From positions 1 through 29,244 of the forward strand of contig JBIIWL010000001.1 in NCBI GenBank assembly GCA_044338885.1: DNA of 29,244 bases, written 5' to 3'. Every line of letters begins with the position of its first letter. Within the stretch, counting starts at the first letter, position 1. Below the pieces are notes generated by a model that was not told where the DNA came from, searched no databases, and was given only the letters and a program-made list of their open reading frames with translations. The stretch is from Fibrobacteria bacterium. GTDB lineage: Bacteria > Fibrobacterota > Fibrobacteria > UBA11236. Shown in pieces: positions 2,962-28,759 of this stretch. The position numbers were made by a program, and so were the translations under genes.

Positions 2962-3528
2962 ATGATCTCAGACCTTCGTGCCGACTGGCGGGCCATCTAC
3001 CGCAACGACCCCGCCGCCCAAGGGCTTCAACCTTTGCTCTACCCGGGCCTGCACGCCCAGGTGCTGCACCGTTGCTTCGCGCACCCGCTGTACAATATCG
3101 GGCTGTTCTTCTTGGCGCGCCTTGTGTCTGAAATCTCGCGCTTTCTCACCGGCATCGAAATTCACCCCGGTGCCAAAATCGGCCCTGGGCTTTTCATCGA
3201 TCACGGCCATGGCATTGTGATCGGCGAAACCGCGATCATCGGTGATGACTGCATTCTGTTCCACCGGGTCACGCTCGGCGGCACGGGTAAGCACGGCGGC
3301 AAGCGTCACCCCACCATCGGCAGCCGCGTGCTGATCGGCACCAACGCGACGCTCTTAGGCCCGATCACTGTGGGCAACGACGTTAAGATCGGTGCGGAGA
3401 CGGTTGTGATCATGCACGACATCCCCAGCGACTGCACCGTCGTCGGTGCGCCGGGGCATATCGTCAAGCTCAACGGTCAACGTATGGAGCGCAAGCTCGA
3501 GCGGACGGTGGAGCCGTCGGCAACTTAA
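2962..3528 (+). CDS. cysE: Serine O-acetyltransferase
   Basis: [55 protein letters not shown] and hexapeptide repeats. ATG at 2962. Confidence 0.93.
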
Positions 3529-4247
3529 TCCTTCGGCGAAACCAGCGGCGTAACGGGAGCCTTTGCGCCCTCAGGCATTTTCTCCATACGCCGCCCACGC
3601 AGATCGAAGATGTCTCGCTTGATCTTTGAATCTTTCGAGTCCCGCAACCCCTGCAAGATCACCGATAGACTCGGGTATTGCTGTGTGCCCCGCACGATCA
3701 GAGTGTCTCGTCCCCGGCTATTTTTAGCTGTGAAAATCATTCGAAAACAAATGGTGTCTCCTGCCGCGGCGGTGACGGCCTTCTTGGCGAGCGGCACAGG
3801 GGCGTCGATTTCAAAGTCATAAAGATTGCGGCTGGCCTGAACTTCAATAGAACCGAAGCCACTGATGGGCGTAAACGAGCAGCTTGTGGTAGAGGGGCAA
3901 TACGCACCTCCCCAATAAGCGCTACGCCCAGCGTATGAGGGGGAAAGCTGTCCATTTTTGGTGCTGTCATAGAGCACAAAACCAAACGTCATATTATCAA
4001 AGAAAGCTTGAACTTTTTCGATATAGAGCGAGTCGAAAGTCAGGGGAGACGCACCCTGATTCACAACGGCCACCTTGTTGGTATAGGGGAAAAAGTAGCG
4101 CTGCCCGTTTACGGTCATTGTGTCGGTACCGGATTGACCTTCGTAGACCGTGTCTTTTGAAAAGGCCCAGGTGCGGGTTTGAGCACTCGTCGAGGAGAAA
4201 AAACCCGATAAGGCAAGCCCACAAAGTAAGTGTAATGCTCGGCTCAT
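3525..4247 (-). CDS. Exported hypothetical protein with short C-terminal FDLRGR-type tail
   Basis: ATG at 4247 with an upstream GGAG. Signal peptide [22 protein letters not shown], beta-rich body, C-terminal [10 protein letters not shown]. Its stop overlaps the cysE stop (TTAA). Confidence 0.75.
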
Positions 4248-4447
4248 AAAAATCTCCCCTCCAATCTCATGCTCGAAAACACAATCACCAATTCTATCTA
4301 GGTCGGCGCAGTGACGATCCAACTGACAATTTACCCCCCGCCACTTCAAATACAAGTCATACCCGCGACTGTGAAAACATTTTACCCTGATCTGTTTGAC
4401 CGCTAAATCTTCGTCGTCTCTTTCTGCGTTCGCTACTATTCTCCCCC

Positions 4448-5626
4448 ATGCACATCCTCGTCGACGAAAACATCCCCCAAGGCCGTGAGGTCTTTAGCGC
4501 CTACGGCACCGTCTCCACCTTCCACGGCCGCAAGCTCACCGCCGCCGAGGTACGTACCAGCGGCGCCGACGCCCTGCTCGTCCGCAGTATCACCAAGGTC
4601 AACGCCGACCTATTGAGCGGGTCAAACGTCAAATTCGTCGGCACCGCCACCATCGGCGTCGACCATATCGATCAAGACTATTTGCGCGCCCACAACATCG
4701 GCTTTAGCGCAGCACCCGGCTGCAATGCCCGCTCGGTGGCTGAATATTTTGTCGCCGCGCTGCTCCACCTGCACGTCAAACACAGCGTGTTTCCCGAAGG
4801 ATTAGAGGGCAAGACGCTCGGCATCGTCGGTCACGGCAACGTGGGCAAACAAGTGGCCGCCATCGCGCCTGCGCTCGGCCTTAAAGTGCTCGTCAGCGAT
4901 CCGCCACTGGCAGATGCTGGCGCGACACCGCCGCCCGGCGGATTCAAAACACTGCACGAACTCGCGGCGCAGTGCGACATCATCACCATGCATACGCCGC
5001 TCACCAAAACCGGCGCGCACCCCACGCTGCACATGGCCAACAGCGCGTTCTACAATGCGCTCGCCAAACCGATCGTACTCATGAACATGGGGCGCGGAGA
5101 GGCTATGGACGAAGCCGCGCTGATCGAAGCGGTCGACTCGGGGAAGGTGCGACATCTCGTGCTAGACGTCTTCCCCGGTGAACCGAATGTGAACCCCGAA
5201 CTGGGCACACGCGCCGACTTGATTTCGCCTCACATCGCGGGCTACTCAATCCAGGGCAAACTCAACGGCACCACACAAATTCATAACGCCTTCTGCACAC
5301 ACTTCGGGCTGCGCTCACAAAGCGGCGTCGAATACCCCAAACCCATTGCGCCGCTGATTCACTTCGGCCTGCTCGCCATACCCGCCGACGCGACGGTGGA
5401 GACCGAACTGGACGCCGTCGTGCGTCACGCCTACACCATCACCCGTGACGATGCTGATTTGCGTGGGTTTTTGGGTGACGCTGACTTTGCCACCTCGTTC
5501 GACGGGTTACGAAAGCGTTACCCCGTGCGCCAAGAATTCGCAGGATTCACCGTTCGGGACGTGCCGCACGAAAAAAAATGGGTAGCCGAAAAATTAACAG
5601 CCTTGGGTTTTCGCGTCGAAAACTGA
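4448..5626 (+). CDS. pdxB: Erythronate-4-phosphate dehydrogenase
   Basis: ILVDENIP, ADALLVRSITKV, FVGTATIGVDHID, APGCNARSVAEY, GIVGHGNVG, PHIAGYS and the PdxB C-terminal FDGLRKRYPVRQEF. Confidence 0.93.
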   Translation: MHILVDENIPQGREVFSAYGTVSTFHGRKLTAAEVRTSGADALLVRSITKVNADLLSGSNVKFVGTATIGVDHIDQDYLRAHNIGFSAAPGCNARSVAEYFVAALLHLHVKHSVFPEGLEGKTLGIVGHGNVGKQVAAIAPALGLKVLVSDPPLADAGATPPPGGFKTLHELAAQCDIITMHTPLTKTGAHPTLHMANSAFYNALAKPIVLMNMGRGEAMDEAALIEAVDSGKVRHLVLDVFPGEPNVNPELGTRADLISPHIAGYSIQGKLNGTTQIHNAFCTHFGLRSQSGVEYPKPIAPLIHFGLLAIPADATVETELDAVVRHAYTITRDDADLRGFLGDADFATSFDGLRKRYPVRQEFAGFTVRDVPHEKKWVAEKLTALGFRVEN

Positions 5627-5894
5627 GGTTCGGTTTTGGGCTGGTGACCCAAAGTTTTCAACATATGGTCAATCTTGCCCAGAATGGCCTATCACCCCTA
5701 TAAAATGGGGGTAAAACCAACGTGGTCACACCTTTGTGGTGGTTTGTGGGCCACCGGATTTTTTAGCCGCGACACGGTATGTTGAACGTACACCGCGGGG
5801 TGACGACAAAAAACAGAATCCGAAAATGATTCTGTGACCACCTCCACGGCCATTGCTTGTGACGATCCCTTCACCCCCGGGAAAGGAGACTCCA

Positions 5895-6668: not shown

Positions 6669-6698
6669 GCCTAAGGGATTTAGACTGGTTTTGGACGC

Positions 6699-6746
6699 AG
6701 TCCTCACCCCCGCCCCCTCTCCAGCATAGCTGGAGAGGGGGGCCCT
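6699..6746 (+). repeat. Palindromic REP/MITE-like element, copy 3
   Basis: The 48-bp core is identical to copy 1 except GG to GC. A 13-bp partial repeat, GAGGGGGGCCCTT, follows at 6769-6781. Confidence 0.9.
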
Positions 6747-6940: not shown

Positions 6941-9745
6941 ATGGCGAAAGCCTCGAAATACGTTTACTTGTTCGGCGGAAAAAAGACGGACGGTGATTCG
7001 TCCATGCGCAACTTGCTCGGTGGCAAGGGCGCCAACCTCGCCGAGATGGCCAAGATCGGCTTGCCCGTTCCGGCCGGCTTCACGATCACCACGGAAGTGT
7101 GCACCCACTACTACGCCAACAAGCGCACGTACCCGGCCGCGTTGCAAAAGCAAATCGAGGACGGCATCAAGCACCTCGAGTCGAGCATGGGTTTCAAGTT
7201 CGGCGACAAGAACAAGTTCCCGCTGCTGGTGGCCGTGCGCTCGGGCGCACGCGATTCCATGCCCGGCATGATGGACACGATTTTGAACCTCGGCCTCAAC
7301 GATGATAGCGTGCAGGCTTTGGTGAAGGCGACCGGCAACGAACGCTTTGCGTGGGATTGCTACCGCCGCTTTGTGCAGATGTACGGTGACGTGGTGCTCG
7401 GCGTTCAGAAAGAAGCCGGCGAAGATCACGAGCCGTTTGAAGTTGCGATCGAGACCCTGAAAAAAGAACGCCTGGGCAATGCCCACGCCGACGACAACGA
7501 TCTCTCCGCTGACGATTTGAAGGAAATGGTCGCCCGCTTCAAGAAGCTGGTCAAAGACCGCACCGGCAAGAGCTTCCCGACCAATCCGTGGGAACAACTC
7601 AAGGGTGCGATCGGCGCCGTGTTCTCCTCATGGATGAACGACCGCGCGATCGTGTACCGCCGCAAGTACGGCATCCCTGCCGAATGGGGTACCGCCGTCA
7701 ACGTGCAGGCCATGGTGTTCGGCAATACCGGCGAAGAGTCGGGTTCGGGCGTGGCCTTTACGCGTGACCCGGCGACGGGCGAAAAAGTGTTCTACGGCGA
7801 GTTCTTGATGAACGCGCAGGGCGAAGACGTGGTGGCCGGCGTACGTACGCCCGACGCCGTGGCCAAGTTGGCCGACAAGCAGCCCAAGTCGTACAAAGAG
7901 TTGGAGCGCATCCGCGGCGTGCTCGAGAAGCACTTCAAGGACATGCAGGATTTCGAGTTCACCATCCAAGACAAAAAGGTGTTCATGCTCCAGACCCGCG
8001 CCGGCAAGCGCACGGGTGTGGCCGCGGTGCGCATCGCGGTCGAAATGGTGAAAGAAAAGTTGATCGATTGGGAAACCGCCGTGATGCGCGTGCCCGCCGA
8101 ACAGCTCGACCAGGTTTTGGCACCGATCTTCGACCGCACCGCGGCGAAGAACGCGGCCGTGATCGCAACGGGTCTGCCTGCAGGCCCGGGCGCCGCGACC
8201 GGCAAGATCTACTTCAGCGCCGAGAAGGCCGTTGAAGCCGCCGACAAGGGCGAGAAGGTGTTGCTCGTGCGCGTGGAAACCTCGCCTGAGGATTTGCGCG
8301 GCATGATCGCAGCCGAAGGCATTCTGACCGCGCGCGGCGGCGTGTCCTCTCACGCGGCGCTCGTGGCCCGTCAGATGGGCAAGGTCTGCGTGTGCGGCGC
8401 TGCCGCATTGCACGTCGACTACGACAAGCGTACGCTGACCGTCGACGGTAAGGTCTACCGCGAAGGCGACTTCCTCTCCATCGACGGCACGGCCGGTACG
8501 GTGTGCGCGGGTGAAGTCAAGACCGCCGCCTCCGAAGTGGTGCAGGGCTTGGTCGAAGGCGATGCCACGGCGCGCAAGAGCCGTACGTTTGCCAACTTCC
8601 AGCAGCTGATGAAGTGGTGCGCGCAGTCGACCCGTATGGTCGTCCGCACGAACGCCGACAACCCCGAACAGACCCGCAACGCCGTGGCGTTCGGCGCCGT
8701 GGGCATCGGCCTCACGCGTACCGAGCACATGTTCTTTGAAGGCGATCGCATCGATGCCATGCGCGAGATGATTCTCGCCGGCTCGGTCGAAGCCCGTAAG
8801 GTCGCGCTCGCGAAGTTGCTCCCCTACCAGCGCGCAGACTTCCTCGGCATCTTCAAGGAATTGAAGGGCCTGCCGGCGACCATCCGCTTCTTGGATCCGC
8901 CGCTGCATGAGTTCTTGCCTCACAGCAAAGAACAGCAGATGGACCTCGCGCGCAAGATGGGCATTCCGGTCGAGAAGATCATCGCCCGCGTGCACGAACT
9001 CCACGAGTTCAACCCCATGCTCGGTTTCCGTGGCTGCCGTCTCGGCATCCGCTTCCCGGAAATCACCGAGATGCAGGCGCGCGCCGTGTTTGAAGCCGCC
9101 GCACTGGCCCAAAAGGCCGGCGTGAAGGCCAAGCCCGAAGTGATGATCCCGCTGGTCGGCTTCAAGAAAGAGCTCGACTTGCAGGTCGCCATCGTGCATG
9201 AGACCGCCAAGAAGGTCGAAGCGGAAAAGAAGATCAAGCTGTCCTACCAGGTCGGCACCATGATCGAAGTACCGCGCGGCGCCCTCACGGCTGACGAAAT
9301 CGCGCACACCGCGGAGTTCTTCAGCTTCGGCACCAACGACTTGACGCAGACCACCATGGGCATGAGCCGCGATGACTCGGGCTCGTTCCTCGGCGCGTAC
9401 CAAGAAGAAGAGATCGTGAAGAACAACCCGTTCGCCAGCATCGATGAGACCGGCGTGGGCCAGCTCATGGAGATCGCGATCGAGAAGGGCCGCAAGACCC
9501 GTCCCGATATCAAGCTCGGCATTTGCGGCGAACACGGTGGCGATCCGGCCTCTGTGAAGTTCTGCCACAAGATCGGCCTCGCTTACGTGAGCTGCTCGCC
9601 GTTCCGCGTGCCGATCGCTCGCCTCGCGGCAGCGCAGGCTGCGATCGCCGACAAGCGTGCGGCCGCCAAGGCTGGTAAGGCTTCGAAGGGTAAGGCTAAG
9701 CCTGCCTCCAAGAAGACCGCCAAAAAGGTCGCCAAGAAGAAGTAA
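6941..9745 (+). CDS. ppdK: Pyruvate, phosphate dikinase
   Basis: [56 protein letters not shown], phospho-His motif [53 protein letters not shown]. Confidence 0.98.
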
Positions 9746-9814: not shown

Positions 9815-9954
9815 GTTTAGCATCGTAAGGAAACGTTTCCAAACCTTTGCGAAGCATGAACCGCAGACGTGTAGAGCAAACACCTAAGGGTCGTAGCCCT
9901 CATTGTCTTGTAATTTGTCTGCTCTCACGACTTGAATCACCGACAGGAGTTTTC

Positions 9955-10677
9955 ATGACACCATCGCTCTCGCGGATCCTCAGTCTTTCCGCCACACTGT
10001 GCGCCGCACTCACAACCGCCCACGCGCAACCCCTCCCCGGCGGGGCGTTCACCCTCGCGCCTCTCCCCTACGCCACCGACGCCCTCGAGCCCGCCATCGA
10101 CAAAGCCACGATGGAAATCCATCACGGCAAACACCACCAGGCCTACGTCACCAACTTGAACAACGCCATCGCCGCAGACGCCGCCCTCGCGACTCTTTCA
10201 CTCAGTGAACTGGTCGCCAAAGCCGGTACGTTATCGTCCACCGTACGCAACAACGCAGGCGGCCACTGGAACCACACGTTCTTCTGGAACATCATGGCGC
10301 CCGTCGGTCAGGGCGGGGCACCATCGCCCGCATTGTTAAAAGGCATCAACGACACCTTCGGGTCGCTCGAGGCCTTTAAGGCCGCGTTTAACAAAGCGGG
10401 CCTCGCACGCTTTGGCTCGGGCTGGAGCTGGCTGATCGTTGATGCCAACGGCAAGCTGGCCATCACTACAACGCCGAATCAAGACAACCCTCTGATGGAT
10501 GTGGCCGAGGTGCGCGGCACACCTGTGCTCGGCAATGATTTGTGGGAGCACGCCTACTACCTCAAGTACAATAACCGGCGGGGTGATTATTTGGGCGCGT
10601 GGTGGCAGGTGGTCAACTGGGATGTGGTCTCCGAACACTACGCGGACGCCATCAAGGACTCGAAGGCGAAGAAGTAA
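9955..10677 (+). CDS. sodA: Superoxide dismutase, Mn-type signature, with signal peptide
   Basis: HHGKHHQAYV, NNAGGHWNH, FGSGWSWL, PNQDNP, DLWEHAYY. AGGAG RBS before ATG 9955. N-terminal Sec-like peptide ending AHA. Confidence 0.9.
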   Translation: MTPSLSRILSLSATLCAALTTAHAQPLPGGAFTLAPLPYATDALEPAIDKATMEIHHGKHHQAYVTNLNNAIAADAALATLSLSELVAKAGTLSSTVRNNAGGHWNHTFFWNIMAPVGQGGAPSPALLKGINDTFGSLEAFKAAFNKAGLARFGSGWSWLIVDANGKLAITTTPNQDNPLMDVAEVRGTPVLGNDLWEHAYYLKYNNRRGDYLGAWWQVVNWDVVSEHYADAIKDSKAKK

Positions 10678-10780: not shown

Positions 10781-12034
10781 TCAACGCTTGGGCAACGGAT
10801 TCGGAGGGATGGGCGGACTGATGATCAGGCCACCGGTCGCGCCGTATTCGACGACAAGGCCTGGCAATTGACCAGAAGGGTTCGATGGATCGACGTTCGG
10901 ATCCCAAACGGACCCCGGGCCGGAATATGGCAGCGTCAGCGTATAAGTGGATTCGGGAAGCGGAATCGAAAACTGCCCCCTATACACCGGTGCTGAAATC
11001 GGCCAGCTGCCCAACGAACCGGCATACACGTAAAACGCAACGGTGTGCGCCGTGTCGGCCCGCGCATGGTCAAACTCCAGTGCACTCACCAGCGGTGACG
11101 AAGGGAACCAACCCGAAGCGCTACTGTCAGCCACCGTATCCCCGTTCACCACCATGACCAGTCGTTTGAAGAACAATGCCTGTTTGGCGGTCACAAGCGG
11201 ATCCGAAGATCTGAGCGTATCGGGCAATCGAAACCGTGCCACCATCGGCTGAAAACGATTGGTGAGGGTCATCGAGACCGGCTTCGTCTCAGCAATGATC
11301 ACGTTTTCGGCAACCGCGGTCCCGTGATGCATGGTCTCGCCGGCCGCATCAAGAGTTTTCACCTCGATGGTCCAGGTGCGTAGCGGCTTGACCGTATAGG
11401 ATTTCAGGATTTGCTGTGGCGTGGCGGTCGCCACCGTCAAGACTCCGTTCACATTTTCTGAAGCCACAATGGTGTCGCGGATCACGGAGTCTGAGGCACT
11501 ATTCGATGTCAATGTGATGATGAGTCGATCCATGCGGAGCGCCGCCGTCTTGGCCAACGGTGGTTCGGGAACGGCGTTTAGCCTGATGCTGAGGACGATG
11601 TGTGAAAGCGTCGTGGGCCCGAAATCATTCGGCACGGGAATGCTCACCTCGGCTGTATCCGTCCCGCCGGGCCCTACCGCGATCACCCGGTACGTCTCCC
11701 ATTCCGGCGTGCCGCTGGGGATACTATAACTGATGCGGCCTGTGGTCGTTTCGAAGCTGGCCACAAAAAACGACAACGCAGGTGTGATGGAATAGTGAGT
11801 GACAGGCCCGCCGGTGGAGTTCACGTTCAATCTGTACTGACCATTGATTGTGTCTTCGAGGGCGTCGGAATACGTAATAACGGGGGCCAGGGGTTCTTCG
11901 GTCTCATACTTAAAGCTCTCATCGATGACCGTATCGAGGCAGCCCACAAAGGCCAGCGCAGCGAACGACGCGCACAGCGCGACGAGCGATGAAAATTTGA
12001 ACGCGATGCGATAACCTTGAGCAAATCGTGACAT
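10781..12034 (-). CDS. Lipoprotein with putative Ig (He_PIG-like) domain; paralog of 12076-13458
   Basis: Lipobox FVG-C, the segment GGPVTHYSITPALS..FETTTGRIS, a beta-rich body and a Pro-rich C-terminus. Confidence 0.75.
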   Translation of the reverse strand: MSRFAQGYRIAFKFSSLVALCASFAALAFVGCLDTVIDESFKYETEEPLAPVITYSDALEDTINGQYRLNVNSTGGPVTHYSITPALSFFVASFETTTGRISYSIPSGTPEWETYRVIAVGPGGTDTAEVSIPVPNDFGPTTLSHIVLSIRLNAVPEPPLAKTAALRMDRLIITLTSNSASDSVIRDTIVASENVNGVLTVATATPQQILKSYTVKPLRTWTIEVKTLDAAGETMHHGTAVAENVIIAETKPVSMTLTNRFQPMVARFRLPDTLRSSDPLVTAKQALFFKRLVMVVNGDTVADSSASGWFPSSPLVSALEFDHARADTAHTVAFYVYAGSLGSWPISAPVYRGQFSIPLPESTYTLTLPYSGPGSVWDPNVDPSNPSGQLPGLVVEYGATGGLIISPPIPPNPLPKR

Positions 12035-12075: not shown

Positions 12076-13458
12076 TTAAGGAGGTGGTGGCGGAGGATTG
12101 GGGTCATCCGCCGATGCGGGGCCCGTGTAAGAACCAGGGGGCGAATACACGGTCGTACCCGGCACGTAAGGCCCGGTGAAGAAATACCGAATGATCGGGA
12201 GCGCCGGGTTCCATCCGTTGGCGGTACCGAAGAACAGAATCTCCAGCTGATCGATTTTATTGGCCGGAATATAGCGGGTACTGATCAAACGGCTCCCCGT
12301 CGTGGGAAAGCTGCCACCAGCGGCGAGCGTATCGTATAGGGTATCGCCGGCGCTCAGAATGGCGGCGCGCGTATACGTCAGCGGGATGTTGTACCCCGCA
12401 TACACATTCCCCACGTTGGCGTAGATCTGAACCTGCGCCGTGAAGGCCGCAAAGCGCGCGGCGAGATTGAGCGATGTGGAATGGACCGTGGCACTCGTAA
12501 GCATCGCGATCGTATCAGCCCCGACATGAATGACCGAGTCTTTGCTGTCGAGTGTCTTCACGGTGACGATGTACCCGAAGCCCGCGTACAACGGGTAAAA
12601 CTTGCCGAAGGTTTGCGCGGCGCCCGGTGACGCCACAAACCCTTCCGTGCCCGCGTCCACAGTATCACGCACCTCAAACCCGCCCGGCAACGTGGGTGTG
12701 ATGCTCACCATCAACTTGGACAGCGGAATACCCGAGGCCAAGCCAAGGTTCACGGACAACAGGGCGCCCGTCGCATCGCCGGGCAATGTCGTATTCTCGA
12801 CCACGGACAGCATGATAAAGGCTGTATCGCGACCTGTGGAGTTCTGCGCGATCACCCGATAGAGTGTGGCCGCCATGGGAGAAAACGGGGCACCCGAAAT
12901 TAAGCCCGTCGCGGTGTCAAACCGCATACCGGAAGGCAAGCCCGGCCTTAGGGTAAACACGTTCTCACCCCCGCCGGTTGAAATCACCGGGTGCGAGGCC
13001 TGCACGAACTGTGTGTCGACCACAGGGGTCAGGTAAGAAATGGATGGTTTGGGCTGCAAAATATGCAGCACGATCCGCGCCGTATCGGCCCCCCCAAACC
13101 CGACGCCGATGACGCGATGTGTGGTCACAGGCCAAGACACCGTTGGTGTTCCGGAAACCAACCCCGTCAGGGTATCGAATGAGAGACCCGGTGGTAAGGG
13201 CGGCTCCACGGAGAAGGACTTGACTTTGCCGCCTGAGTCCGACACGAACACGACGTACGACAGAGGCTGACCCACCGTATCAATCGAGGCGGGTGTGATG
13301 CCGATGATCGGTGGCGCCGGCGCCTTGTAGGTCAGGTCTTCGCCCAAACAGCCCGTCAGCACCAGCGACGGGAGAAGAACCGCCAAGAGGGCGGCCCCAA
13401 GACGTATCGGCCTATCCCACAGCCCCAAAAACCTCGATTTAGCGCCAAAAAACGCCAT
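12076..13458 (-). CDS. Lipoprotein with two putative Ig (He_PIG-like) domains
   Basis: ATG at 13458 with an upstream GGAAGG. Lipobox LTG-C. Repeats LPPGLSFDTLTGLVSGTPT and LPSGMRFDTATGLISGAP. Ends DDPNPPPPPP. Confidence 0.8.
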   Translation of the reverse strand: MAFFGAKSRFLGLWDRPIRLGAALLAVLLPSLVLTGCLGEDLTYKAPAPPIIGITPASIDTVGQPLSYVVFVSDSGGKVKSFSVEPPLPPGLSFDTLTGLVSGTPTVSWPVTTHRVIGVGFGGADTARIVLHILQPKPSISYLTPVVDTQFVQASHPVISTGGGENVFTLRPGLPSGMRFDTATGLISGAPFSPMAATLYRVIAQNSTGRDTAFIMLSVVENTTLPGDATGALLSVNLGLASGIPLSKLMVSITPTLPGGFEVRDTVDAGTEGFVASPGAAQTFGKFYPLYAGFGYIVTVKTLDSKDSVIHVGADTIAMLTSATVHSTSLNLAARFAAFTAQVQIYANVGNVYAGYNIPLTYTRAAILSAGDTLYDTLAAGGSFPTTGSRLISTRYIPANKIDQLEILFFGTANGWNPALPIIRYFFTGPYVPGTTVYSPPGSYTGPASADDPNPPPPPP

Positions 13459-16667: not shown

Positions 16668-17819
16668 CTAGGGCACTATCACCTTGTGGTTGAACCGGCC
16701 CGCGCGTGATGAGACGCGTACAACGTAGACCCCCGTTTTCTGCAGGGCAGCCGGTCGGAAGATTTCGTTGCTCGTCCCTCGCGCTGTAAACACCGGGGTA
16801 CCGTTCAGCGCGTAGACCCCTAGTGAATAGGGTTCCACGGCATGAATCACGAGTTCGCCGTTGCGGATCAACAGCGCGCCTTGAGCGCCGCCACTGGGCG
16901 GCCCATTCGCATTGAGGGATGTCGAGGTGTAACCGGCGAGGTATTCAAGACCGCGCAAGACGAGCCCTGCGAAAAACTCGGCGAAGGGCGTTGTGCCGCC
17001 CGTGTTTTGATGAATAAGGCCCGTGTAAAAAAAGCGGTTTCCCGTCGTTGAGTCTTCGCGGTACCAGGCCATGGGGTGCGGGTTCATAGACCACTCTGGC
17101 GTGAGGGCCTCGCTCAAGGTCGACTCATCGAGGTTGTAGAGCACGCGCACGCCGGGCCACGTGGGCGCCGTGAGCGTGAACGTGTACCACTCATCGGCGG
17201 CCACACGCATGGTGTCGGGGAGGCCCTGCAGAATGGGGCGGTTGCGCACGGCGGTATCCAACGTGCGCTTGATGGTGCCCGCCGGCGTATTCGGACCATG
17301 CAACGCATAGTGCATGCTCGACACTGTATCCCGAAACCAATTCCATTCGTTCGCCTCGTTGGCCGCCGAGGAATGAACGCCCAGCCAACCACGTTGCAAA
17401 CCGGGCGTGGTCATCCAGGTTTTAAACGCCGTTACAAACGGTTGAAAATTGGTTTGTACCACGTTGGCTTGGATGTACCCGCTCTGGAACCAATAATTGA
17501 ACAGGATGATATCGTAGGTCGCAAGGTTGGGGAGCGGCGTGCCGCTCCCGCTGAGCAGCGCGCTCCCGGAAATCGAATCGAGTTGAAAGCCAACCGCGGT
17601 TTTGAGTTGATTGAGCCGTTGGCTGAGCACGCGCCGTGAGGCCCCGTGCGCCGTATTGGCGGCATCGGTCCCGTTGATCACCAAGATGCGTTTACTGGAG
17701 AGCTGACTTTGGGGGTTGGGCGCGACTTGGGCCCTCACGGGGGTGGGCACGACGAGCGGGGTCCCTAAAACCATGAGGGCAAGGGCGGCCAATCGGGATT
17801 TTTGAAAATTGAACGACAT
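16668..17819 (-). CDS. Exported ThuA-like domain protein with T9SS-like C-terminal domain (paralog 1)
   Basis: AGGAG RBS, ATG 17819, signal peptide ending VRA. ThuA motifs WLGVHSSA, DEWYTF, LDES, HPMAWY, RFFYTGLIH. Tail YSLGVYALNG...TGVYVVRV...KVIVP. Confidence 0.8.
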   Translation of the reverse strand: MSFNFQKSRLAALALMVLGTPLVVPTPVRAQVAPNPQSQLSSKRILVINGTDAANTAHGASRRVLSQRLNQLKTAVGFQLDSISGSALLSGSGTPLPNLATYDIILFNYWFQSGYIQANVVQTNFQPFVTAFKTWMTTPGLQRGWLGVHSSAANEANEWNWFRDTVSSMHYALHGPNTPAGTIKRTLDTAVRNRPILQGLPDTMRVAADEWYTFTLTAPTWPGVRVLYNLDESTLSEALTPEWSMNPHPMAWYREDSTTGNRFFYTGLIHQNTGGTTPFAEFFAGLVLRGLEYLAGYTSTSLNANGPPSGGAQGALLIRNGELVIHAVEPYSLGVYALNGTPVFTARGTSNEIFRPAALQKTGVYVVRVSSRAGRFNHKVIVP

Positions 17820-20392: not shown

Positions 20393-21856
20393 TTAGATGC
20401 CCATCTCGAGACGCATCATGTAGTACCAGTCTTTCCACTCGATGTTGGTGACCGGCGCATACGACTGCTCCGCCTTCCAGTTCACGAGACGCTGGTTGTC
20501 GTTGGCGGCCTGAGCATAAATGGTCAAACCACGCACCACAGTTTTCTTTGCAAGCAAAGACCACTTCCAGTTGTCTTTAGTGACCTCATCAAGATCCCTC
20601 TTGAACAAGTTGGGGTCCTGTTCGGAAATCGTTCCAGACGGACCACTGTTCACGAAGGGCAGAGTCGGCATCTGGTAACGGTAGGCGTTCTCAATTGAGT
20701 TCGGAAACGGCGAGTTGTAGTACTCCATCTGGAACGAGAGGACGTCCAGGAAACGGAAGGTCGGTGCATTGAAGCCGAACATCACAGGCATGCGTTCCGT
20801 TTTCTTCTCGTAGTAGAAGTCGTAATCCTTCACACCGAGGAGCGCGATTTCACCGAACACCTTGAGATCTTGGGGCCCCAGCATGTCCATTGTGACATAG
20901 GCTTTGGGATCGAAAGATGCGCGAGCCATAAGTTTCACACCCTGGAAGGTGTAGAAGCTGGTGGTATCGTAGATGTAACGCGGGTTCAGTGTAGAACCAA
21001 GTCCGTTATCAACGCGCGCGCCCGTCAAATCGGTTGCCGGCAGAGAATCGACAAAATTGGGATTCTCCCGAATGATCCCGCTTCCGTTGCCGAAGTTGGT
21101 GGCATTCTCACCATAGCGAACCTTGGGCGAGGTTACGCTCGGTTTCACGGCGAGACAGTGATGACAAGACACGCCGCCACCCACCTCAACGCCGCGAGCC
21201 GGGAAGGCCGTTACGATGTAGGTCGGAGAAATGTCGCCGGTGGGCGGCAGATCACGTTCGACGGGGAGCAAGAACTCATGTTGAAGCTTACCGCCAAACA
21301 TGGGCACGTTGACCCGAACACCCTGCATCATGTAGCCGTTGCCCATGAGGTTCCAGCCACCCGAGCTCAAGTAGCCGGGATAGGCCCCCGAACGCAACAG
21401 GTATTCGCCGAGGTTCGCCGCATCAGCATTGTACTTGTAAGGGAAAAACCCCGCTTGCAAGGTCGCGACCGGTTTGGTCACGTCACCGAAGCGATACTCC
21501 ATGTCTGCACGGGAAATACCCGGGCCGAACTTGGTCGAGGTCACAAAGGGACGCACATTCGCTTCGCCCGGAGGGGGATTCTCGATGTCGTACCAGAACA
21601 TGCCACCCACGCCGGCGCGCACCTGGAGGCGGTCACTGACGTGGATTTCTTGAGTAACCCAAACCGAAGTCCGCTGGATGTAGTTCGCATCCTGGACGGA
21701 TTCATTCCATTTGCCCTTCACAACCTGACCGAAGTCAATCAAGGACCCCATGGACAAGGGCATCAATTTCACGTTATCCTCGGCGGGTTCCGCGAGGGTG
21801 GGGATTGCTGTCAGGCAGGTAGCCACGACCGCAGAAATCAGATTTCGAAAATTCAT
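20393..21856 (-). CDS. Putative large outer-membrane beta-barrel protein (paralog A)
   Basis: AGGAG RBS, signal peptide ending TLA, many amphipathic strands, the block GFFPYKYNADAANLGEYLLRSGAYPGYL, and C-terminal YYMMRLEMGI. Confidence 0.75.
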   Translation of the reverse strand: MNFRNLISAVVATCLTAIPTLAEPAEDNVKLMPLSMGSLIDFGQVVKGKWNESVQDANYIQRTSVWVTQEIHVSDRLQVRAGVGGMFWYDIENPPPGEANVRPFVTSTKFGPGISRADMEYRFGDVTKPVATLQAGFFPYKYNADAANLGEYLLRSGAYPGYLSSGGWNLMGNGYMMQGVRVNVPMFGGKLQHEFLLPVERDLPPTGDISPTYIVTAFPARGVEVGGGVSCHHCLAVKPSVTSPKVRYGENATNFGNGSGIIRENPNFVDSLPATDLTGARVDNGLGSTLNPRYIYDTTSFYTFQGVKLMARASFDPKAYVTMDMLGPQDLKVFGEIALLGVKDYDFYYEKKTERMPVMFGFNAPTFRFLDVLSFQMEYYNSPFPNSIENAYRYQMPTLPFVNSGPSGTISEQDPNLFKRDLDEVTKDNWKWSLLAKKTVVRGLTIYAQAANDNQRLVNWKAEQSYAPVTNIEWKDWYYMMRLEMGI

Positions 21857-21889
21857 GTTCGGCTCCTTTCGGGTTCGCTGTGCGGTCCG

Positions 21890-23254
21890 TTAAATGCCGA
21901 ACTGGAATCGGATGAGGTAGTACCAATCTTTGCCGTTGCGGTTGGTGATAGGCACCATGGTCGGCAAAAGCCCTTCAAGCACGTGGAAGGTTCGAATGTG
22001 ATCGCTCGCGGCTTGAGCGTAAATATCGATCCCCTTGGTGACTTTCTTCTTGCCGTACAAGGTCCACTTCCAATTATCGCGTTTGGCGGTGGCGTTATAG
22101 CGTGCCACAGAAGCAGGATCCGCAAAGTCCGGGAGCTGCCAGATGGGCAAGGCGGAGTACAGGGGCTCTTTAAAGCTGTTGAAGAACTGAGAGTTGTAGT
22201 ACTCGAGCTCAAAGGAGAGGACGTCGAGCATCTTGAACGTGGGGATGTTGAAACCACCCATGATCGGCATGCGTTCGGTGCGCTTCTCGTACATGTAGTC
22301 GTAATTCTTCCAGCCTAAGACCGCGACTTCACCGTACAGCTTCAGGTCTTCAGGACCGAAATATGCCTCGGGGAGCGAGATGAACGCCTTAGGATCAAAC
22401 GAGGCATTTGCAGTCAGTTTGACGCCTTGGAACGAATAGCGTTCCGAGCTATCGCGAATGGGCGCGCCCGTGGAGTCGAAACCCGTGATCACGAAGTTAT
22501 TGCCCGAAGGATCGTTGGGGGTTTCGCGGCTGGGTTTGACCGAAAGGCCGTGGTTCCAGGCCACACCGGCGCCCAAGCGGACACCTTCAACCGGAGTCAC
22601 GGAGGCCACCAAGGCCGGCGTGATGCTAAACAAAGGCGGCAGATCGCGCTCCATAGCCATCAGGAAGTCGACATCGACGCGCTTATCCCAATATTGGGCA
22701 TTCGCACGGAGACCTTGAACCATGTAGGCGGCGCTGTTCAGCATGCTCCAACCACCGGTGGTCAGGTAACCCGGGTAGGCACCCGAGCGCATCAGGTATT
22801 CGCCGAGGTTCTTGGCGTCAGGGTTGTACTTATAAGGGAAAAAGCCCATTTGCAACCGAGCCGTGGGGTTCTCGAGGTCGCCAAAGGTGTAAACACCCTG
22901 GGCCTGGGAGATACCGGGGCCAAACTGGGTCTGGCGGGAGGACACCGTGTTGGGATCGTTGGGAATCGAGTACCAGAAAATACCGCCCACACCGACGGTG
23001 AGCTGGAGTCTTTGGTTGACCACCGCTTCTTGAGTGATCCAGACACCCATACGCTGAAAGAAATCACCATTGAATTCGTAGTCTTTCGCGTTGTTTTCGG
23101 TGTAGCTGGTGCCACCTTTAACGATTTGACCATTATCAAACTGGCCAGAAATCGAGATGCGTTTGTATTCGATTTCTGCGTCCTCTGCCGCAAAGGCTGC
23201 AAAAGGCGCGGCGAGGACAAGTGCCGAGAGGGAAATGAGGCTACGTACGTTCAT
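21890..23254 (-). CDS. Putative large outer-membrane beta-barrel protein (paralog B)
   Basis: AGGAG RBS, signal peptide ending AFA, the block GFFPYKYNPDAKNLGEYLMRSGAYPGYL, and C-terminal YYLIRFQFGI. Colinear with paralog A. Confidence 0.75.
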   Translation of the reverse strand: MNVRSLISLSALVLAAPFAAFAAEDAEIEYKRISISGQFDNGQIVKGGTSYTENNAKDYEFNGDFFQRMGVWITQEAVVNQRLQLTVGVGGIFWYSIPNDPNTVSSRQTQFGPGISQAQGVYTFGDLENPTARLQMGFFPYKYNPDAKNLGEYLMRSGAYPGYLTTGGWSMLNSAAYMVQGLRANAQYWDKRVDVDFLMAMERDLPPLFSITPALVASVTPVEGVRLGAGVAWNHGLSVKPSRETPNDPSGNNFVITGFDSTGAPIRDSSERYSFQGVKLTANASFDPKAFISLPEAYFGPEDLKLYGEVAVLGWKNYDYMYEKRTERMPIMGGFNIPTFKMLDVLSFELEYYNSQFFNSFKEPLYSALPIWQLPDFADPASVARYNATAKRDNWKWTLYGKKKVTKGIDIYAQAASDHIRTFHVLEGLLPTMVPITNRNGKDWYYLIRFQFGI

Positions 23255-23520: not shown

Positions 23521-24702
23521 ATGACTATCAATAAGATGCTCGGATTAACCGTTTTACTGGCTTTGACGGGTTCGGTCTTTGCGCAGGGCGTTCCTGGAAA
23601 AGATCGCCCCATTCGCGTCGGCCAATTCAAGGGCACGGGCCAAGGCCGCTACTGGCACACCAACATTCACACCTCGGGTACCCAGCTGGCCGCCATTTTG
23701 GCTAACCCGGACAGCACCGGTTTGGGTGCCGATTTAGTGAAGCCCACCGCAGGCTTCACCTTCACCCAGTTTGGTCTGCCGTCCGGTACCGGTACGCCGA
23801 CCACCGTGCAGCGCGACGCCTTTATCACAGCCCTCGACTCGCTCGACGTGGTGCTGATTAGCTGCTTCGTGGAAATCGGTAACTCGATTGCCGCTGGTGC
23901 CCCGCGTACGGCACTGATGAACCACATTCAAACCAAGGGCTACATCGCCGTCCACGCGACGACTGACTCCTACGGTACCTGGACGGGCTTGGACAGCATC
24001 CACGCTGCACGCTTCCAGAACCACCCGTCTGCCGATCGTAACGGCCGCTTGCGCCTCGACTCGTTGGACCTCTCCTACGCCCTCGCCGATTCTAACTGGA
24101 AGTTCCTCAACAAATCGCTCGCCGATACGACCTTCCTCGAAGAATGGTTCTCGTTTACCACCAACGGTAACGTGATCCGTAGCTACCCGGGCGTGAAGGT
24201 GACCGTCAACATTGACGAAGCCTCCTATGCCGGTGGTTTGGGTGGCGCCCGCGCCATGGGTACGGATCACCCGATGAGCTGGTACCGTGTGCTGCCGACC
24301 GGTGGCCGCTTCTTCTACACCGCCGTGGGTCACCGTGCCAACATCTGGGCCGGTACCACCGCCAACCCCCGCTTCCTGCGCCGCCAGCTGTACAACGCGA
24401 TTTTGTGGACCTCTGGCTACGATACCACCAGAACAGTGTCGATCCAGCCCCAGGCCGCCAAGTCCCTCCGCTTTGCAGACGTGTCTCGCATGAGCGCTGG
24501 CGAAGGCGCCCTCACTGTGACCTTGCTGCAACCCGGCATCCACAGTGTTGAGCTCACGACTCTGGACGGCCGTCGCGTTGCGATCCGCCGTGGTGAAGGC
24601 CGCGATTTCGCGTACAACTTCTCGAGCCTTAACTCGGGCGTGTACTCGGTCGCCGTCAACACGCAGAATGGCCGTTCGAGCCAGCTCGTGACGATTCGCT
24701 AA
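23521..24702 (+). CDS. Exported ThuA-like domain protein with T9SS-like C-terminal domain (paralog 2)
   Basis: Signal peptide ending VFA. YWHTNIH, IAVHATTD, RFQNHP, EEWFSF, IDEASY, DHPMSWY, GRFFYTAVGH. Tail LTTLDGRRV...SGVYSVAV. Confidence 0.85.
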   Translation: MTINKMLGLTVLLALTGSVFAQGVPGKDRPIRVGQFKGTGQGRYWHTNIHTSGTQLAAILANPDSTGLGADLVKPTAGFTFTQFGLPSGTGTPTTVQRDAFITALDSLDVVLISCFVEIGNSIAAGAPRTALMNHIQTKGYIAVHATTDSYGTWTGLDSIHAARFQNHPSADRNGRLRLDSLDLSYALADSNWKFLNKSLADTTFLEEWFSFTTNGNVIRSYPGVKVTVNIDEASYAGGLGGARAMGTDHPMSWYRVLPTGGRFFYTAVGHRANIWAGTTANPRFLRRQLYNAILWTSGYDTTRTVSIQPQAAKSLRFADVSRMSAGEGALTVTLLQPGIHSVELTTLDGRRVAIRRGEGRDFAYNFSSLNSGVYSVAVNTQNGRSSQLVTIR

Positions 24703-24761: not shown

Positions 24762-24834
24762 CATCCCTGACGAAGCGGATTGATCGTTGGGTATTATTGA
24801 ACGTTCAAGCATTTCAAGAATCAGACCACGACTC

Positions 24835-26724
24835 ATGCATCGCTTTCTTTATTCAAAAATGGCTTCAGGGGCACTCCTCTTTTTGGGAGCACTTCTCGTT
24901 TATGTCAATACGATGTCTTCGGGGATTGGGACCGAAGATCCCGGTGAACTTGCCGCTGTTTTGCACACGATGGGCATTGCGCATCCCACCGGCTACCCCC
25001 TTTATACAATGCTGGGCTCGTTATTCGTCCGCATTCCCATTGGCGACTACGGCGCATGGCGGATGAATCTATTTGGAGCACTCCTCACGGCGCTCGCGGT
25101 GTATCAGTTTTGGGGGCTATTCCGGTTCATATTCTCAAACCGTGGTCGCACAGCCTTTTCATCGTCTACGCGCGCGCAAGGTTCCACAGAATTTCAACGC
25201 GGCCCTCTTTCCGATGAATGTGCGGCACTTGCCGCACCATTGATTTTCGCCTTTTCTGCCGTGTTTTGGCAGCAGGGTGTCTTTCTTGAAGTGTACGCGC
25301 TTCACCTCGTCTTTCTAGCCGTGGTGACGCGATTGTTCCTGACGTCCCTTGTTGAGGAAGGTCAACAAAAGGGGCGGCGCACGTGGCTGCTGTTCGCCTA
25401 TGTGCTGGGTCTGAGCTTTGCCCATCACATGATGACGTCATTATTAGCGCCGGCTTTCTTGTGGCTGTTCTTTCGCGTGCAGGGCTTCAATCGCCGCGCC
25501 TTCATGCTCATCGCCTACGCGATCCCACCCTTTGTTTTAGGCCTCACCGCCTACCTGTTTATTTTGATTCGCTCGGCTACGGCTCCCCTGATGAATTGGG
25601 GCGAGCCAAACAATTGGGGCGCGCTTTGGAAGCATGTCCGGGGCGCACAATACGGTGAGCAGATGTTCTCGTCGTGGGAGATCGCGGTTCGTAAGCTGAC
25701 TCAGTTTGCGGTTGATTTACCCGTTGATTTCGGGTGGCCGGTGATAGTGCTCGCTATCGCAGGGATTGTGGTTCTCTATCGTACGCTGCCGGGCTTATTG
25801 ATTTTTTCGGGGCTGGTGTTCGGCACGGGCTTGGTGTATGCGGCAAACTATGCGTTTGATGATCCAAATTTCCACCTCCACCCGCACTTTATGGTGGCCT
25901 TGTGGGCCGGGGCTGCACTTGGTGGATTATGGACAGTGAAGGCCGGAAAACTGACGCTCGCCGTGCGATTGATTTGCGCGCTGCTAGCTCTCTCTCCGCT
26001 GCTTTTGAATTTCAAGACGATGGATAAAAGCCGCGATACGCTGGTATCAGACTATTCACGCAACGTTCTCGAATCATTAGACTCAGGGGCGGTACTGTTC
26101 ACCAACGAATATGAACGACTGGGAAGCCCGGCTTTTTATTGGCAGATCGTTCAGGGTTATCGCAGCGATGCGGTGGTGCTTGACATTATTCTTTTGGGCA
26201 ACCCCTGGTTTTTCTCTCACCTTGAAGCGCGGCACCCATGGCTCATGAAGGCTTCACGCGCAGAGATTGCGGTGTATCGTGAGGAGCTCCATCGGTTTGT
26301 GCACGGGCCTCGTGATACGGTGGCGTACAATGCGCGACTGCGTGCTATGTTCCGTTCGATCATTGAGAACAGCCGAAGGGCGAATCGGCCCGTTTATTTT
26401 ACCTCGGGAATCAATGCGGACGAAGCACCGGGTTATCGCCTTGTGCCCTCGGGCATGGTGTTCCGGCTTGAACCGGACTCAAACACGACGGCCTACATTC
26501 CACCCCGCGACTTCACCCTCGCCCCCCTACCCTCACCTTCGGTCAATCGTCTCTCGGAACAAATACGAGTGGAGTATGCGGAAGGTTACGCCAATCAGGG
26601 CGCTCACGTGCTGGAACACCGCGATACGGTGCGCGCGGCAGAGCGGTTTCGCAAGGCGTTGGCGATGTATCCGAACTTTCCCGCCGTACGGGAGTTGTTG
26701 AATTCAATTGCGCCTATGCGGTGA
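24835..26724 (+). CDS. DUF2723 / TMEM260-like multi-pass GT-C glycosyltransferase with C-terminal TPR-like repeat
   Basis: EDPGELAA..MGIAHPTGYPLY, EVYALH, GLSFAHH, PLMNWG, many TM segments, and a C-terminal YANQG..AERFRKALAMYPNF. Start uncertain (24787 TTG, 24835 ATG or 24859 ATG). Confidence 0.82.
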   Translation: MHRFLYSKMASGALLFLGALLVYVNTMSSGIGTEDPGELAAVLHTMGIAHPTGYPLYTMLGSLFVRIPIGDYGAWRMNLFGALLTALAVYQFWGLFRFIFSNRGRTAFSSSTRAQGSTEFQRGPLSDECAALAAPLIFAFSAVFWQQGVFLEVYALHLVFLAVVTRLFLTSLVEEGQQKGRRTWLLFAYVLGLSFAHHMMTSLLAPAFLWLFFRVQGFNRRAFMLIAYAIPPFVLGLTAYLFILIRSATAPLMNWGEPNNWGALWKHVRGAQYGEQMFSSWEIAVRKLTQFAVDLPVDFGWPVIVLAIAGIVVLYRTLPGLLIFSGLVFGTGLVYAANYAFDDPNFHLHPHFMVALWAGAALGGLWTVKAGKLTLAVRLICALLALSPLLLNFKTMDKSRDTLVSDYSRNVLESLDSGAVLFTNEYERLGSPAFYWQIVQGYRSDAVVLDIILLGNPWFFSHLEARHPWLMKASRAEIAVYREELHRFVHGPRDTVAYNARLRAMFRSIIENSRRANRPVYFTSGINADEAPGYRLVPSGMVFRLEPDSNTTAYIPPRDFTLAPLPSPSVNRLSEQIRVEYAEGYANQGAHVLEHRDTVRAAERFRKALAMYPNFPAVRELLNSIAPMR

Positions 26725-26748
26725 GCGCCGAAATACGTTGGCCTCAGC

Positions 26749-27399
26749 TTAGTGTTTGTGTCCCGAGTGGTCTGAGTCGCGCGGTGGGATACGCGGCGGG
26801 TGCAGACTCATTTTGGCGAGCGAATCGGCCGTAATGGGAAAGTGGACCCACCGCTCAGTCGGGGCGCTGAAACGGCGGCGCACGGCATCGCCTTCAAATA
26901 AGAAGTATTCCATGATGGGGGGATGGTCGACCTCCGGTCTTTCATTCCAAACTTCGGAGTAGACCGAAATCTTTTTGGTCCCCGCTTTGATTTTGCCGCC
27001 TAAAACAAAGGTGTGATTCCCCGCCTGAATCGAATTTGAGTCTAGGCCATCATCGCGTCCGGTTCCGCCGAATTTCCAAGCCACGGCCGAGAGGTACACA
27101 GGCTTTCCATCGGCCTTGAGTTTGATTTTTTGTTGGAGGTAGTGCTCCATTCGAAGCTCGTAGCGGCGATAGGCTTGCACGCCGGTGTCAGCATACAAGG
27201 GGAAGGTAAAGACGGTGTTCATCAAATCTTGGGCATCGGCTTCAATGGTGATCGTCACCGAATCGGGCGCTTTGTACCGAATATCGGCATAGGCGAGGGC
27301 GAAATGTTGCGCGCGGGCCGCAAGGGGCGCGAGCACAAGGCTCAGTATCAAGAAACGGGCAAAACGAATCACAGAATCCTCCAAAAACCGGCGAATCAA
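26749..27399 (-). CDS. Exported hypothetical protein with His-rich C-terminus (DUF6702/HupE-associated-like, tentative)
   Basis: Signal peptide ending ARA-QH. Pattern A.I.Y.....TITIEADAQDL...YLQQKIKLKADG. Ends DHSGHKH. Confidence 0.65.
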   Translation of the reverse strand: MIRRFLEDSVIRFARFLILSLVLAPLAARAQHFALAYADIRYKAPDSVTITIEADAQDLMNTVFTFPLYADTGVQAYRRYELRMEHYLQQKIKLKADGKPVYLSAVAWKFGGTGRDDGLDSNSIQAGNHTFVLGGKIKAGTKKISVYSEVWNERPEVDHPPIMEYFLFEGDAVRRRFSAPTERWVHFPITADSLAKMSLHPPRIPPRDSDHSGHKH

Positions 27400-27574
27400 T
27401 AAGGTAGAAGTCCCCTAGAGCCCAAGGCAAGCCGCGTGAGCAATACGGGCCATTTTCCAAGGAAATAGTTTACCTAAACAGCATTCTTTGATTCGTTCGT
27501 ACCATTGACAGGATTTGCCCCATTTGATCCAGAAGTATCAAGCACGACCTCCCTCGACCCTTTAGATTAAAAAG

Positions 27575-28759
27575 ATGTCACTATTTAAAACCTTTAAGTG
27601 GTATGCACCTCTGATCGCCATCACCATGGTCGCATCGCTTGCAGACGCCGCACCGATCCGGGTGGGGATTTTCAAATCGATTGGTACGGGGCGCTTCTGG
27701 CACACGAACATCCATACGGCCGGCTCCGCAATCGTCTCGATCCTAACCAACCCCGACTCCGCTAATTTGGGGCCGGATTTGATAAAACCGACGGATGGTT
27801 TCATTGCAACACAATTCGGCAAAGTGACAGGAACTAGCACCACGACCGATGCGGAAGAGGACGTGTTCTTCGCGGCTTTGGACAGCCTTGATGTTGTGAT
27901 CTTCCCGACCATCGTCGAAATGGGAAATGTGATTAGTCGACCTGAACAACGTATCCGACTCTTGGAGTATTTTCGCACACGGGGTGTTGTTAGCATACAC
28001 GCCACGACGGACAGTTATGGAGCCTGGCCCGCATGGGATTCGATCCATGGCGCGCGTTTCTTAAATTTTCCACCGAGTGACCGACAAGCAACATTGCACC
28101 TTGACTCGGATTCGAACAAAGAACCCTCTTGGAGAGCCCTAAACAGGGGGCTCCCGGATACCGCACGGTTCTTGGAAGAATGGTTTTCATTCACGACAAA
28201 CGCCGATGTCATTCGCTCATCACCAGGGCTTAAAACTACCGTCCGCATTGATGAAGCCTCCTATCAAGGCGGAATCGGGCAAGCCCGGACCATGGGCGCT
28301 GATCACCCAATGAGTTGGTACAAGGAGTCAGGTGATGGAGGACGTTTCTTTTATACGGCACTCGGACACAGGGCTCAGACTTATGCAGGTGTCACAAATA
28401 ATCCCACCACTCCGGAAGCAGCTTACTTCTTCCGCCGCCAGCTGTACAACGCAATCCTCTGGGCCGCAGGCGTGGACTCGACCGGTACCGTAGTCTCCGT
28501 TGCCGACCGTAATCGCACCGCACCCGCGCGTTTCGCCGATCACGCACAGGTGACGTTTAACACGGGGGCACTTACGGTTTCAATCCTGAACGATTCACCA
28601 AACACCGTTGAAGTGTTGGGGGTGAATGGTGGACGCGTGGCGTTAAAGCGCGCCGAGGGTCGCGCCGAGCATCGCTTCGACGCATTGCGCTCTGGCGTCT
28701 ATGTCGTGTCGGTCACGTCGGGTGGTCAACGCCTCACGCGTATGGCGGTAGTGGAATGA
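27575..28759 (+). CDS. Exported ThuA-like domain protein with T9SS-like C-terminal domain (paralog 3)
   Basis: Signal peptide ending ADA. FWHTNIH, SIHATTD, EEWFSF, IDEASY, DHPMSWY, GRFFYTALGH. Tail VLGVNGGRV...SGVYVVSV. Confidence 0.85.
   Translation: MSLFKTFKWYAPLIAITMVASLADAAPIRVGIFKSIGTGRFWHTNIHTAGSAIVSILTNPDSANLGPDLIKPTDGFIATQFGKVTGTSTTTDAEEDVFFAALDSLDVVIFPTIVEMGNVISRPEQRIRLLEYFRTRGVVSIHATTDSYGAWPAWDSIHGARFLNFPPSDRQATLHLDSDSNKEPSWRALNRGLPDTARFLEEWFSFTTNADVIRSSPGLKTTVRIDEASYQGGIGQARTMGADHPMSWYKESGDGGRFFYTALGHRAQTYAGVTNNPTTPEAAYFFRRQLYNAILWAAGVDSTGTVVSVADRNRTAPARFADHAQVTFNTGALTVSILNDSPNTVEVLGVNGGRVALKRAEGRAEHRFDALRSGVYVVSVTSGGQRLTRMAVVE

Follow-up and report, generated by a model that had tools for sequence, protein, structure and literature searches.

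The window examined here is a 29,244-nucleotide stretch (positions 1 to 29,244) of contig JBIIWL010000001.1 in the Fibrobacteria bacterium assembly GCA_044338885.1. It corresponds to contig C159 of our source genome (G000), a 2.0-Mb assembly in 313 contigs that is 83.6% complete with 2% contamination. Six of its genes encode exported proteins, each with a signal peptide or a lipobox, in which the tripeptide D-[ST]-[AILMTV] (hereafter the sequon) is strikingly frequent, and another encodes a candidate glycosyltransferase of the GT-C class with a DUF2723/TMEM260-like domain (Table 1). The same tripeptide is the acceptor of general protein O-glycosylation in Bacteroidota, and the first-pass annotation of the window had read its abundance as the trace of such a system. 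Here we ask how far that reading can be carried.

The hand counts on which it was based (6, 8, 10, 5, 6 and 5, or 40 sequons in total) were reproduced from the translated open reading frames (ORFs). They compare with 7.6 ± 2.6 expected from 1000 shuffles of each mature protein (z-score 12.5), while the nine cytoplasmic proteins of the window contain 9 sequons against 8.4 expected from per-protein shuffles. The excess persists when the composition of each protein is kept, which bears out the earlier argument that serine and threonine richness alone does not suffice to explain it. The accompanying observation that 26 of 27 DT-x triplets carry A, I, L, M, T or V at x was likewise recovered, the exception being a DTQ in the lipoprotein at 12076-13458; DS-x triplets in the same six proteins conform more weakly (14 of 25). 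The window is, however, a favourable place to look. DT-x conformity in exported proteins is 69% genome-wide and not 96% as in the window, and signal-peptide proteins of the genome average 0.77 sequons per 100 amino acids (aa) against about 1.9 in the six window proteins. These lie between the 85th and 99th density percentiles of the genome's signal-peptide proteins, so that the window samples a genome-wide property at its rich end.

Table 1. Exported proteins of the window and the candidate transferase gene, with their sequons (positions are those of the window).
Feature	Position	Strand	Sequons and remarks
Exported protein, 240 aa, no Pfam match	3525..4247	-	6 sequons (0.9 expected); 99th density percentile
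Lipoprotein, 417 aa, paralogue of 12076..13458	10781..12034	-	8 sequons (1.4 expected)
Lipoprotein, 460 aa, He_PIG Ig-like domain	12076..13458	-	10 sequons (1.6 expected)
Signal-peptide protein, 275 aa	15826..16653	+	1 sequon
Exported ThuA-like protein	16668..17819	-	5 sequons (0.7 expected)
Two paralogous signal-peptide proteins (labelled barrels in the first-pass annotation)	20393..23254	-	2 and 1 sequons, in one gapped region
Exported ThuA-like protein, C-terminal all-beta domain	23521..24702	+	6 sequons (1.3 expected)
Short-form DUF2723/TMEM260-like GT-C, candidate transferase	24787..26724, likely start 24835	+	PF11028; 3 sequons in C-terminal half
Signal-peptide protein, 216 aa	26749..27399	-	3 sequons (0.5 expected), one in signal-peptide n-region
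Exported ThuA-like paralogue	27575..28759	+	5 sequons (1.5 expected)

Comparison of related proteins shows which sites are kept. The two lipoproteins have four sequon positions in common at 32% identity, and all five sites of the ThuA-like paralogue at 27575-28759 align with sequons of the protein at 23521-24702 (five of the six in the latter) at 53% identity. When the protein at 23521-24702 is aligned with 77 homologues (34-97% identity), five of the six sites each persist in 68-100% of them; there D is conserved in 94-100%, S and T replace one another freely, and the residue at +1 varies inside the allowed class. In its AlphaFold 2 model (predicted local distance difference test score 88.9) the sequons sit at helix or strand ends or in short helices. 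The model also gives residues 322-392 (24484-24699) as a separate seven-strand all-beta C-terminal domain past a low-confidence linker, a predicted fold that appears to resemble a secretion-type C-terminal domain. For the two so-called barrels, the suggestion that their sequons fall in the same variable loop holds in part: they share a gapped region (A 270-297, B 260-268) but occupy different columns of it.

Beyond the window, genes were called with a custom codon-usage ORF caller and exported proteins with a heuristic, von Heijne-type scan for signal peptides and lipoboxes. Across the genome, the 399 signal-peptide proteins without further membrane helices contain 1025 sequons against 405 ± 18 after shuffling, an observed-to-expected ratio (O/E) of 2.53 (z-score 33.6), while the 739 cytoplasmic proteins contain 623 against 590 (O/E 1.06). 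The proposed enrichment of exported proteins thus holds against shuffled controls at the scale of the genome. Membrane proteins have an O/E of about 1.6, and at least three sequons are found in 36% of the signal-peptide proteins, against 11% after shuffling. The excess is specific at each position. At position -1 of exported proteins D alone is favoured (2.54; E 0.86, N 0.85); at position 0 only S (2.91) and T (2.18) are, with every other residue at or below 1.3; and at position +1 the residues A, I, L, M, T and V range from 1.8 to 4.3, S is weakly favoured (DSS 1.8), and the remaining residues reach about 1.25 or less and are mostly depleted. Ranked among all tripeptides of exported proteins, DSL comes first, DST second and DTL fourth, with DSV and DSI within the top ten; in cytoplasmic proteins none of these five is prominent. 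No longer motif was found in the flanking positions, where bias was mostly below 1.7-fold (W reached 2.0 at one position).

How general this is depends on where the genome belongs. The first-pass annotation had suggested Fibrobacterota, and the domain content agrees: SusD (PF07980), a hallmark of Bacteroidota, was found in only one of 61 genomes of the phylum, and the Fibrobacter succinogenes major paralogous domain (Fib_succ_major) occurs in 82 and 29 copies in two genomes of the same class, in 12 copies in one other genome of the phylum and not at all in the source genus. We infer that the genome belongs to the class Fibrobacteria but not to the order of Fibrobacter. The pyruvate phosphate dikinase gene of the window (ppdK, 6941-9745) departs from this inferred placement, its closest named relatives being from Verrucomicrobiota, Planctomycetota and Acidobacteriota at 72-80% identity with no common neighbours. 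Given identities of at most 80% and the lack of synteny, we found ppdK uninformative as a taxonomic marker, and reused the loci as negative controls.

For the relatives, 19 other genomes were sampled at a modest 60-500 kb each, covering the source genus, family, order and class together with ten families of other classes. Their pooled exported proteins contain 1076 sequons against 436 expected (2.47-fold, z-score 31), and their cytoplasmic proteins have an O/E of 1.17. In every relative whose exported proteins sum to over 3.5k aa the excess is 1.7- to 3.6-fold, the Fibrobacter-like family being lowest in the range (1.7-2.2-fold). The same pipeline applied to 80 loci of Verrucomicrobiota, Acidobacteriota and Planctomycetota returned 0.7-1.2. 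By far the densest protein of this analysis, 1829 aa long with 37 sequons, is encoded in another genome of the source genus (G002, L291:13674-19160).

Could such an excess arise from composition, beta-rich folds, repeat families, or the gene and signal-peptide calls themselves? The calls are heuristic and the six window proteins include paralogues, both of which would favour an artefact. Composition is nevertheless kept in the per-protein shuffles, the related patterns E/N-[ST]-X and D-other-X are not over-represented, singleton proteins still reach 2.33 (2.41 with one protein per cluster), and the same pipeline gives values near 1 on the three other phyla and on Bacteroidota, with annotated coding sequences (CDS) too. 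We therefore regard an artefact as a very improbable explanation. Across genome and phylum alike, the surplus of D-[ST]-[AILMTV] in exported proteins is real and under selection.

What, then, does the selecting? The obvious precedent is the general O-glycosylation system of Bacteroidota (Bacteroides fragilis, Tannerella forsythia, Porphyromonas gingivalis, Flavobacterium johnsoniae), whose acceptor is D-(S/T)-(A/I/L/V/M/T), with the same position preferences as here. There, a core of mannose, rhamnose and glucuronic acid is attached to the Ser/Thr of the sequon, and the motif is restricted to non-cytoplasmic proteins, as the contrast between 2.53 and 1.06 indicates for our genome. Both also have DS slightly ahead of DT and L favoured at +1, according to the account of the motif in a 2025 review (PMC12871550). 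The two differ in that sequon density is about three times higher in Fibrobacterota than in the sampled Bacteroidota and forms a true excess over chance, which the latter lack, in that no metG-wzx locus was seen in Fibrobacterota, in the phylum itself, and in that the Fibrobacterota case is known from sequence alone.

Taken together, shuffling, position specificity, restriction to signal-peptide proteins, independence from paralogue families and from any longer motif, and site conservation all speak, at the level of sequence, for the O-glycosylation reading of the first-pass annotation, and a general system of periplasmic protein O-glycosylation with the Bacteroidota acceptor is in our judgement the best, and a probable, explanation of the excess. 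In such a system, a sugar or glycan would be assembled on a polyprenyl-phosphate carrier, the carrier-linked glycan would be flipped to the periplasm, a membrane transferase would place it on the Ser/Thr of the sequon, and selection would keep and multiply sequons on exported proteins. As to the glycan core, the only hint comes from the rhamnose-pathway genes rmlD and rmlC in the two GT-C gene clusters described below, which may point toward a rhamnose-containing one.

A number of observations weigh against this explanation, and the first comes from Bacteroidota themselves. Our control comprised 590 kb from Parabacteroides, two Prevotella, Phocaeicola, Hymenobacter and Persicobacter, with Flavobacteriia not represented, taken from 'plasmid'-labelled chromosome pieces in PLSDB (NZ_OY725801.1, NZ_CP082843.1, NZ_CP095062.1, CP012852.1, NC_022111.1 and OY726012.1; loci L278-L289). 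The phylum of a genome labelled 'Kapaibacterium' yielded no SusD and hence was of no use as a Bacteroidota control. Unexpectedly, exported proteins of the six named Bacteroidota show no excess (167 sequons against 198 expected, 0.85), a result that also holds for annotated CDS and when global residue frequencies are used, and their sequon density is 0.23 per 100 aa of exported protein against 0.78 in Fibrobacterota. At least one sequon is present in 52% of these exported proteins, which agrees with the 'about half' of the literature. The result for this sample is at odds with the phrase 'enriched mainly in Bacteroidota', which the review uses of the motif (PMC12871550). The known system thus neither needs an excess nor can be recognised by one; in Fibrobacterota either strong selection must come on top of it or a different cause is involved.

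The second set of difficulties concerns machinery. G019, a complete 1.6-Mb genome of 31% GC from the same order as the source (loci L089-L093, L165-L184, L294), yielded no DUF2723 protein by hidden Markov model (HMM), protein or profile search, and no PMT_2, Wzy_C or Wzx-type flippase by family models. The source genome, at its 83.6% completeness, has no match to PMT_2 or, at E 1e-5, to Wzy_C. Searches for STT3 and PTPS_related gave no matches. The adjacency of metG and wzx (the LFG-like arrangement) was not seen: metG is separated from the nearest Wzx-type gene by 16 kb in G002 and by 44 kb in G036, and in G061 the two lie on separate contigs. To our knowledge, this arrangement has been described only for Bacteroides and near genera. 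In membrane proteins, a positive-inside predictor, too crude for the purpose, did not set the inner and outer sides apart (ratios of 1.49 against 1.72 in one comparison and 1.83 against 1.77 in another). The heuristic gene and signal-peptide calls are a further weakness.

Two of these points, the lack of excess in the sampled Bacteroidota, which do glycosylate the motif, and the persistence of the signal in G019 without DUF2723, Wzx, Wzy_C or PMT_2, would also fit selection of the tripeptide by some other sequence-reading process, be it another Ser/Thr modification, an envelope chaperone, a sorting factor or a protease. We consider this unlikely, though the most serious competitor to glycosylation. 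We know of no other process with D-[ST]-[AILMTV] specificity, and the phylum is the sister of Bacteroidota. Moreover, the profile, with E excluded at -1 and its order of preference at +1, matches the experimentally defined Bacteroidota acceptor (as given in PMC12871550), and a glycoprotein is documented in F. succinogenes, namely a cellulose-binding one of 180 kDa (Gong 1996, as cited in PMC3079729).

If glycosylation at the motif is accepted, as we infer, two conserved GT-C families present themselves as candidate transferases. The first is the DUF2723/TMEM260-like family, whose member in the window matches PF11028 with E 4e-34 (118 bits, cut-off 24) and has an EDPGE acidic motif near its N-terminus. 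Its sole relative in the PDB is human TMEM260 (9rql, 2e-15), a protein O-mannosyltransferase of the endoplasmic reticulum. Four proteins of the source genome, including this one, match PF11028, and like TMEM260 they have an N-terminal acidic D-x-G-E loop and many membrane helices (6-15 membrane segments in DUF2723 proteins by a crude hydropathy scan). Of 31 relatives, 30 have the family; of 14 control genomes only that of B. thetaiotaomicron does, and among 72,556 plasmid records it matched in Bacteroidota records only. A long form of about 950 aa, which has a tetratricopeptide repeat (TPR) tail as TMEM260 does, recurs throughout the phylum, matching in other classes with E about 1e-246, and D35-C36-G37-E38 is invariant in ten long-form proteins. 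TMEM260 differs in its acceptor, reading a long IPT-domain signature and not D-S/T-X (preprint 10.64898/2026.03.17.711096).

The long form lies in a same-strand cluster conserved across the class (C95:2910-10355 in the source genome, L145) of nusB, long DUF2723, a GT4 glycosyltransferase, a PF03706 flippase-like gene, a GT2 glycosyltransferase and rmlD. The GT2 has two helices and full-length homology to ArnC, GtrB and dolichol-phosphate mannose synthase; the long form lies beside a homologue of polyprenyl-phosphate sugar synthases. Such a layout would suit glycosylation outside the cytoplasm with a polyprenyl-phosphate sugar as donor. nusB and DUF2723 are likewise neighbours in five families of the class (f1-f5) and, in another class, in family f12 (G058), and in the Fibrobacter-like family the GT2 follows directly after DUF2723. 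Unlike the long form, the window copy has no such GT2 or flippase-like neighbour. Short forms of 620-750 aa have multiplied in the source genus, with up to eight matches per genome, often in tandem arrays of three or four (G008:C10:1-11000 and G005:C2:199000-209000; L195, L196), and other genera have mostly one long form. In Parabacteroides distasonis and Prevotella nigrescens (L278, L279) DUF2723 is followed by a polysaccharide deacetylase and queG, a context unlike that in Fibrobacterota.

As a predictor of sequon excess DUF2723 gave mixed results among 80 metagenome loci with long-form homologues. In one clade of homologues outside the Fibrobacterota clade (L213-L215, L219, L223, L230, L241) the neighbouring exported proteins are enriched (55 sequons against 20.8), while in two others they are not (24 against 19.7 and 4 against 7.9). 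Because Bacteroidota glycosylate without an excess, this comparison weighs neither for nor against DUF2723. G019 keeps the signal over 500 kb with the same profile (135 sequons against 54, 2.49-fold, z-score 13.5). The absence of DUF2723 from a genome in which the signal is kept argues against DUF2723 as the only sequon transferase. On balance, we see it as a reasonable but tentative candidate for that role, and one that would be dispensable for keeping the sequons.

G019 retains a GtrB-like GT2 and a YfhO-like GT-C, and the latter family, present in 60 of 61 genomes of the phylum (G019 included), is the second candidate. In the source genome, the YfhO-like protein (C16:6310-8697, or L293:1310-3697) has 796 aa and about 11 helices and is followed by a GT2. 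Facing it is a cluster with rmlC, an rmlD-like gene, a DegT aminotransferase, a sugar dehydratase, a nucleotidyltransferase, a PF03706 flippase-like gene, a GT4 and a GDP-mannose dehydratase. The protein matches only the C-terminal end of the Pfam YfhO model (E 3e-8), and a search of plasmids returned two weak matches only; in two genomes a YfhO-like paralogue adjoins the long DUF2723. A GT-C next to a GT2 recalls the three-component extracytoplasmic glycosylation of Firmicutes, which consists of a GtrB/CsbB-type GT2, a small flippase and the GT-C YfhO. Firmicutes YfhO, however, decorates teichoic acids, which the Gram-negative Fibrobacterota lack, and a protein acceptor for the Fibrobacterota enzyme is pure conjecture. 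We thus rate the YfhO-like enzyme as an alternative candidate with a rather low chance of being the sequon transferase, and the transferase may be something as yet unrecognised. The O-oligosaccharyltransferases of PglL/PilO type (Neisseria, Burkholderia, Acinetobacter) also glycosylate exported proteins from a lipid-linked glycan. These systems differ from the present case in having no strict three-residue sequon, and their Wzy_C domain has no match at E 1e-5 in G019, just as in the source genome.

The coexistence in G019 of the signal with the loss of several candidate genes could also be taken to mean that the motif is a fossil, in other words that an ancestor glycosylated its exported proteins, the lineage lost the system and the sequons remain. 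Against this, the source genome still has its four DUF2723 genes, the YfhO-like GT-C, polyprenyl-phosphate GT2s and genes for sugar nucleotides, the families sampled all show an excess of equal strength, and sites are conserved with class-preserving swaps. Nor are sequons lost faster even in G019, where 33% of positions are retained compared with 36% in other relatives. We consider the fossil scenario improbable, markedly more so than another sequence-reading process. A bolder version of the glycosylation explanation, in which sequons about three times denser than in Bacteroidota are under clear positive selection, a heavy O-glycan coat on the near-whole secretome is a core trait of the phylum, and G019, naturally without DUF2723, points to the YfhO-like enzyme as the sequon transferase, alone or with DUF2723, also seems unlikely to us.

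One further protein of the window deserves mention in its own right. The Fe/Mn superoxide dismutase ORF at 9847-10677 has about 67 extra N-terminal residues ahead of its Sod_Fe_N domain and no sequon; the heuristic scan assigns it a signal peptide, with an uncertain start codon.

The idea of glycosylation in Fibrobacterota is not itself new, as it has been voiced in the 2025 review, which notes motif enrichment in the phylum and suggests its study as a way to find the origin of the system (PMC12871550). The same source recounts that the Bacteroidota system was described in 2009, that the enzyme for the first sugar on D-S/T-X is still unknown, and that the oligosaccharyltransferase, core flippase and ligase 'remain undiscovered'. 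Our search of the available literature found no Fibrobacter glycoproteome. New here are the quantitative, position-specific profile with its controls, the contrast with the sampled Bacteroidota, the conserved gene clusters of the two GT-C families, and the exception of G019.

These results offer several openings. With its much stronger sequence footprint of the motif, this second phylum provides an independent lineage in which to look for common genes, G019 is a natural gene-loss genome that discriminates between candidate transferases, and Fibrobacter succinogenes is a cultured organism in which the proposal can be put to the test. Should the glycosylation explanation prove true, Fibrobacter would carry glycans on most of the proteins with which it degrades cellulose and on most of its outer-membrane vesicle cargo, with consequences for the stability of these proteins, for adhesion and for their expression in other hosts.

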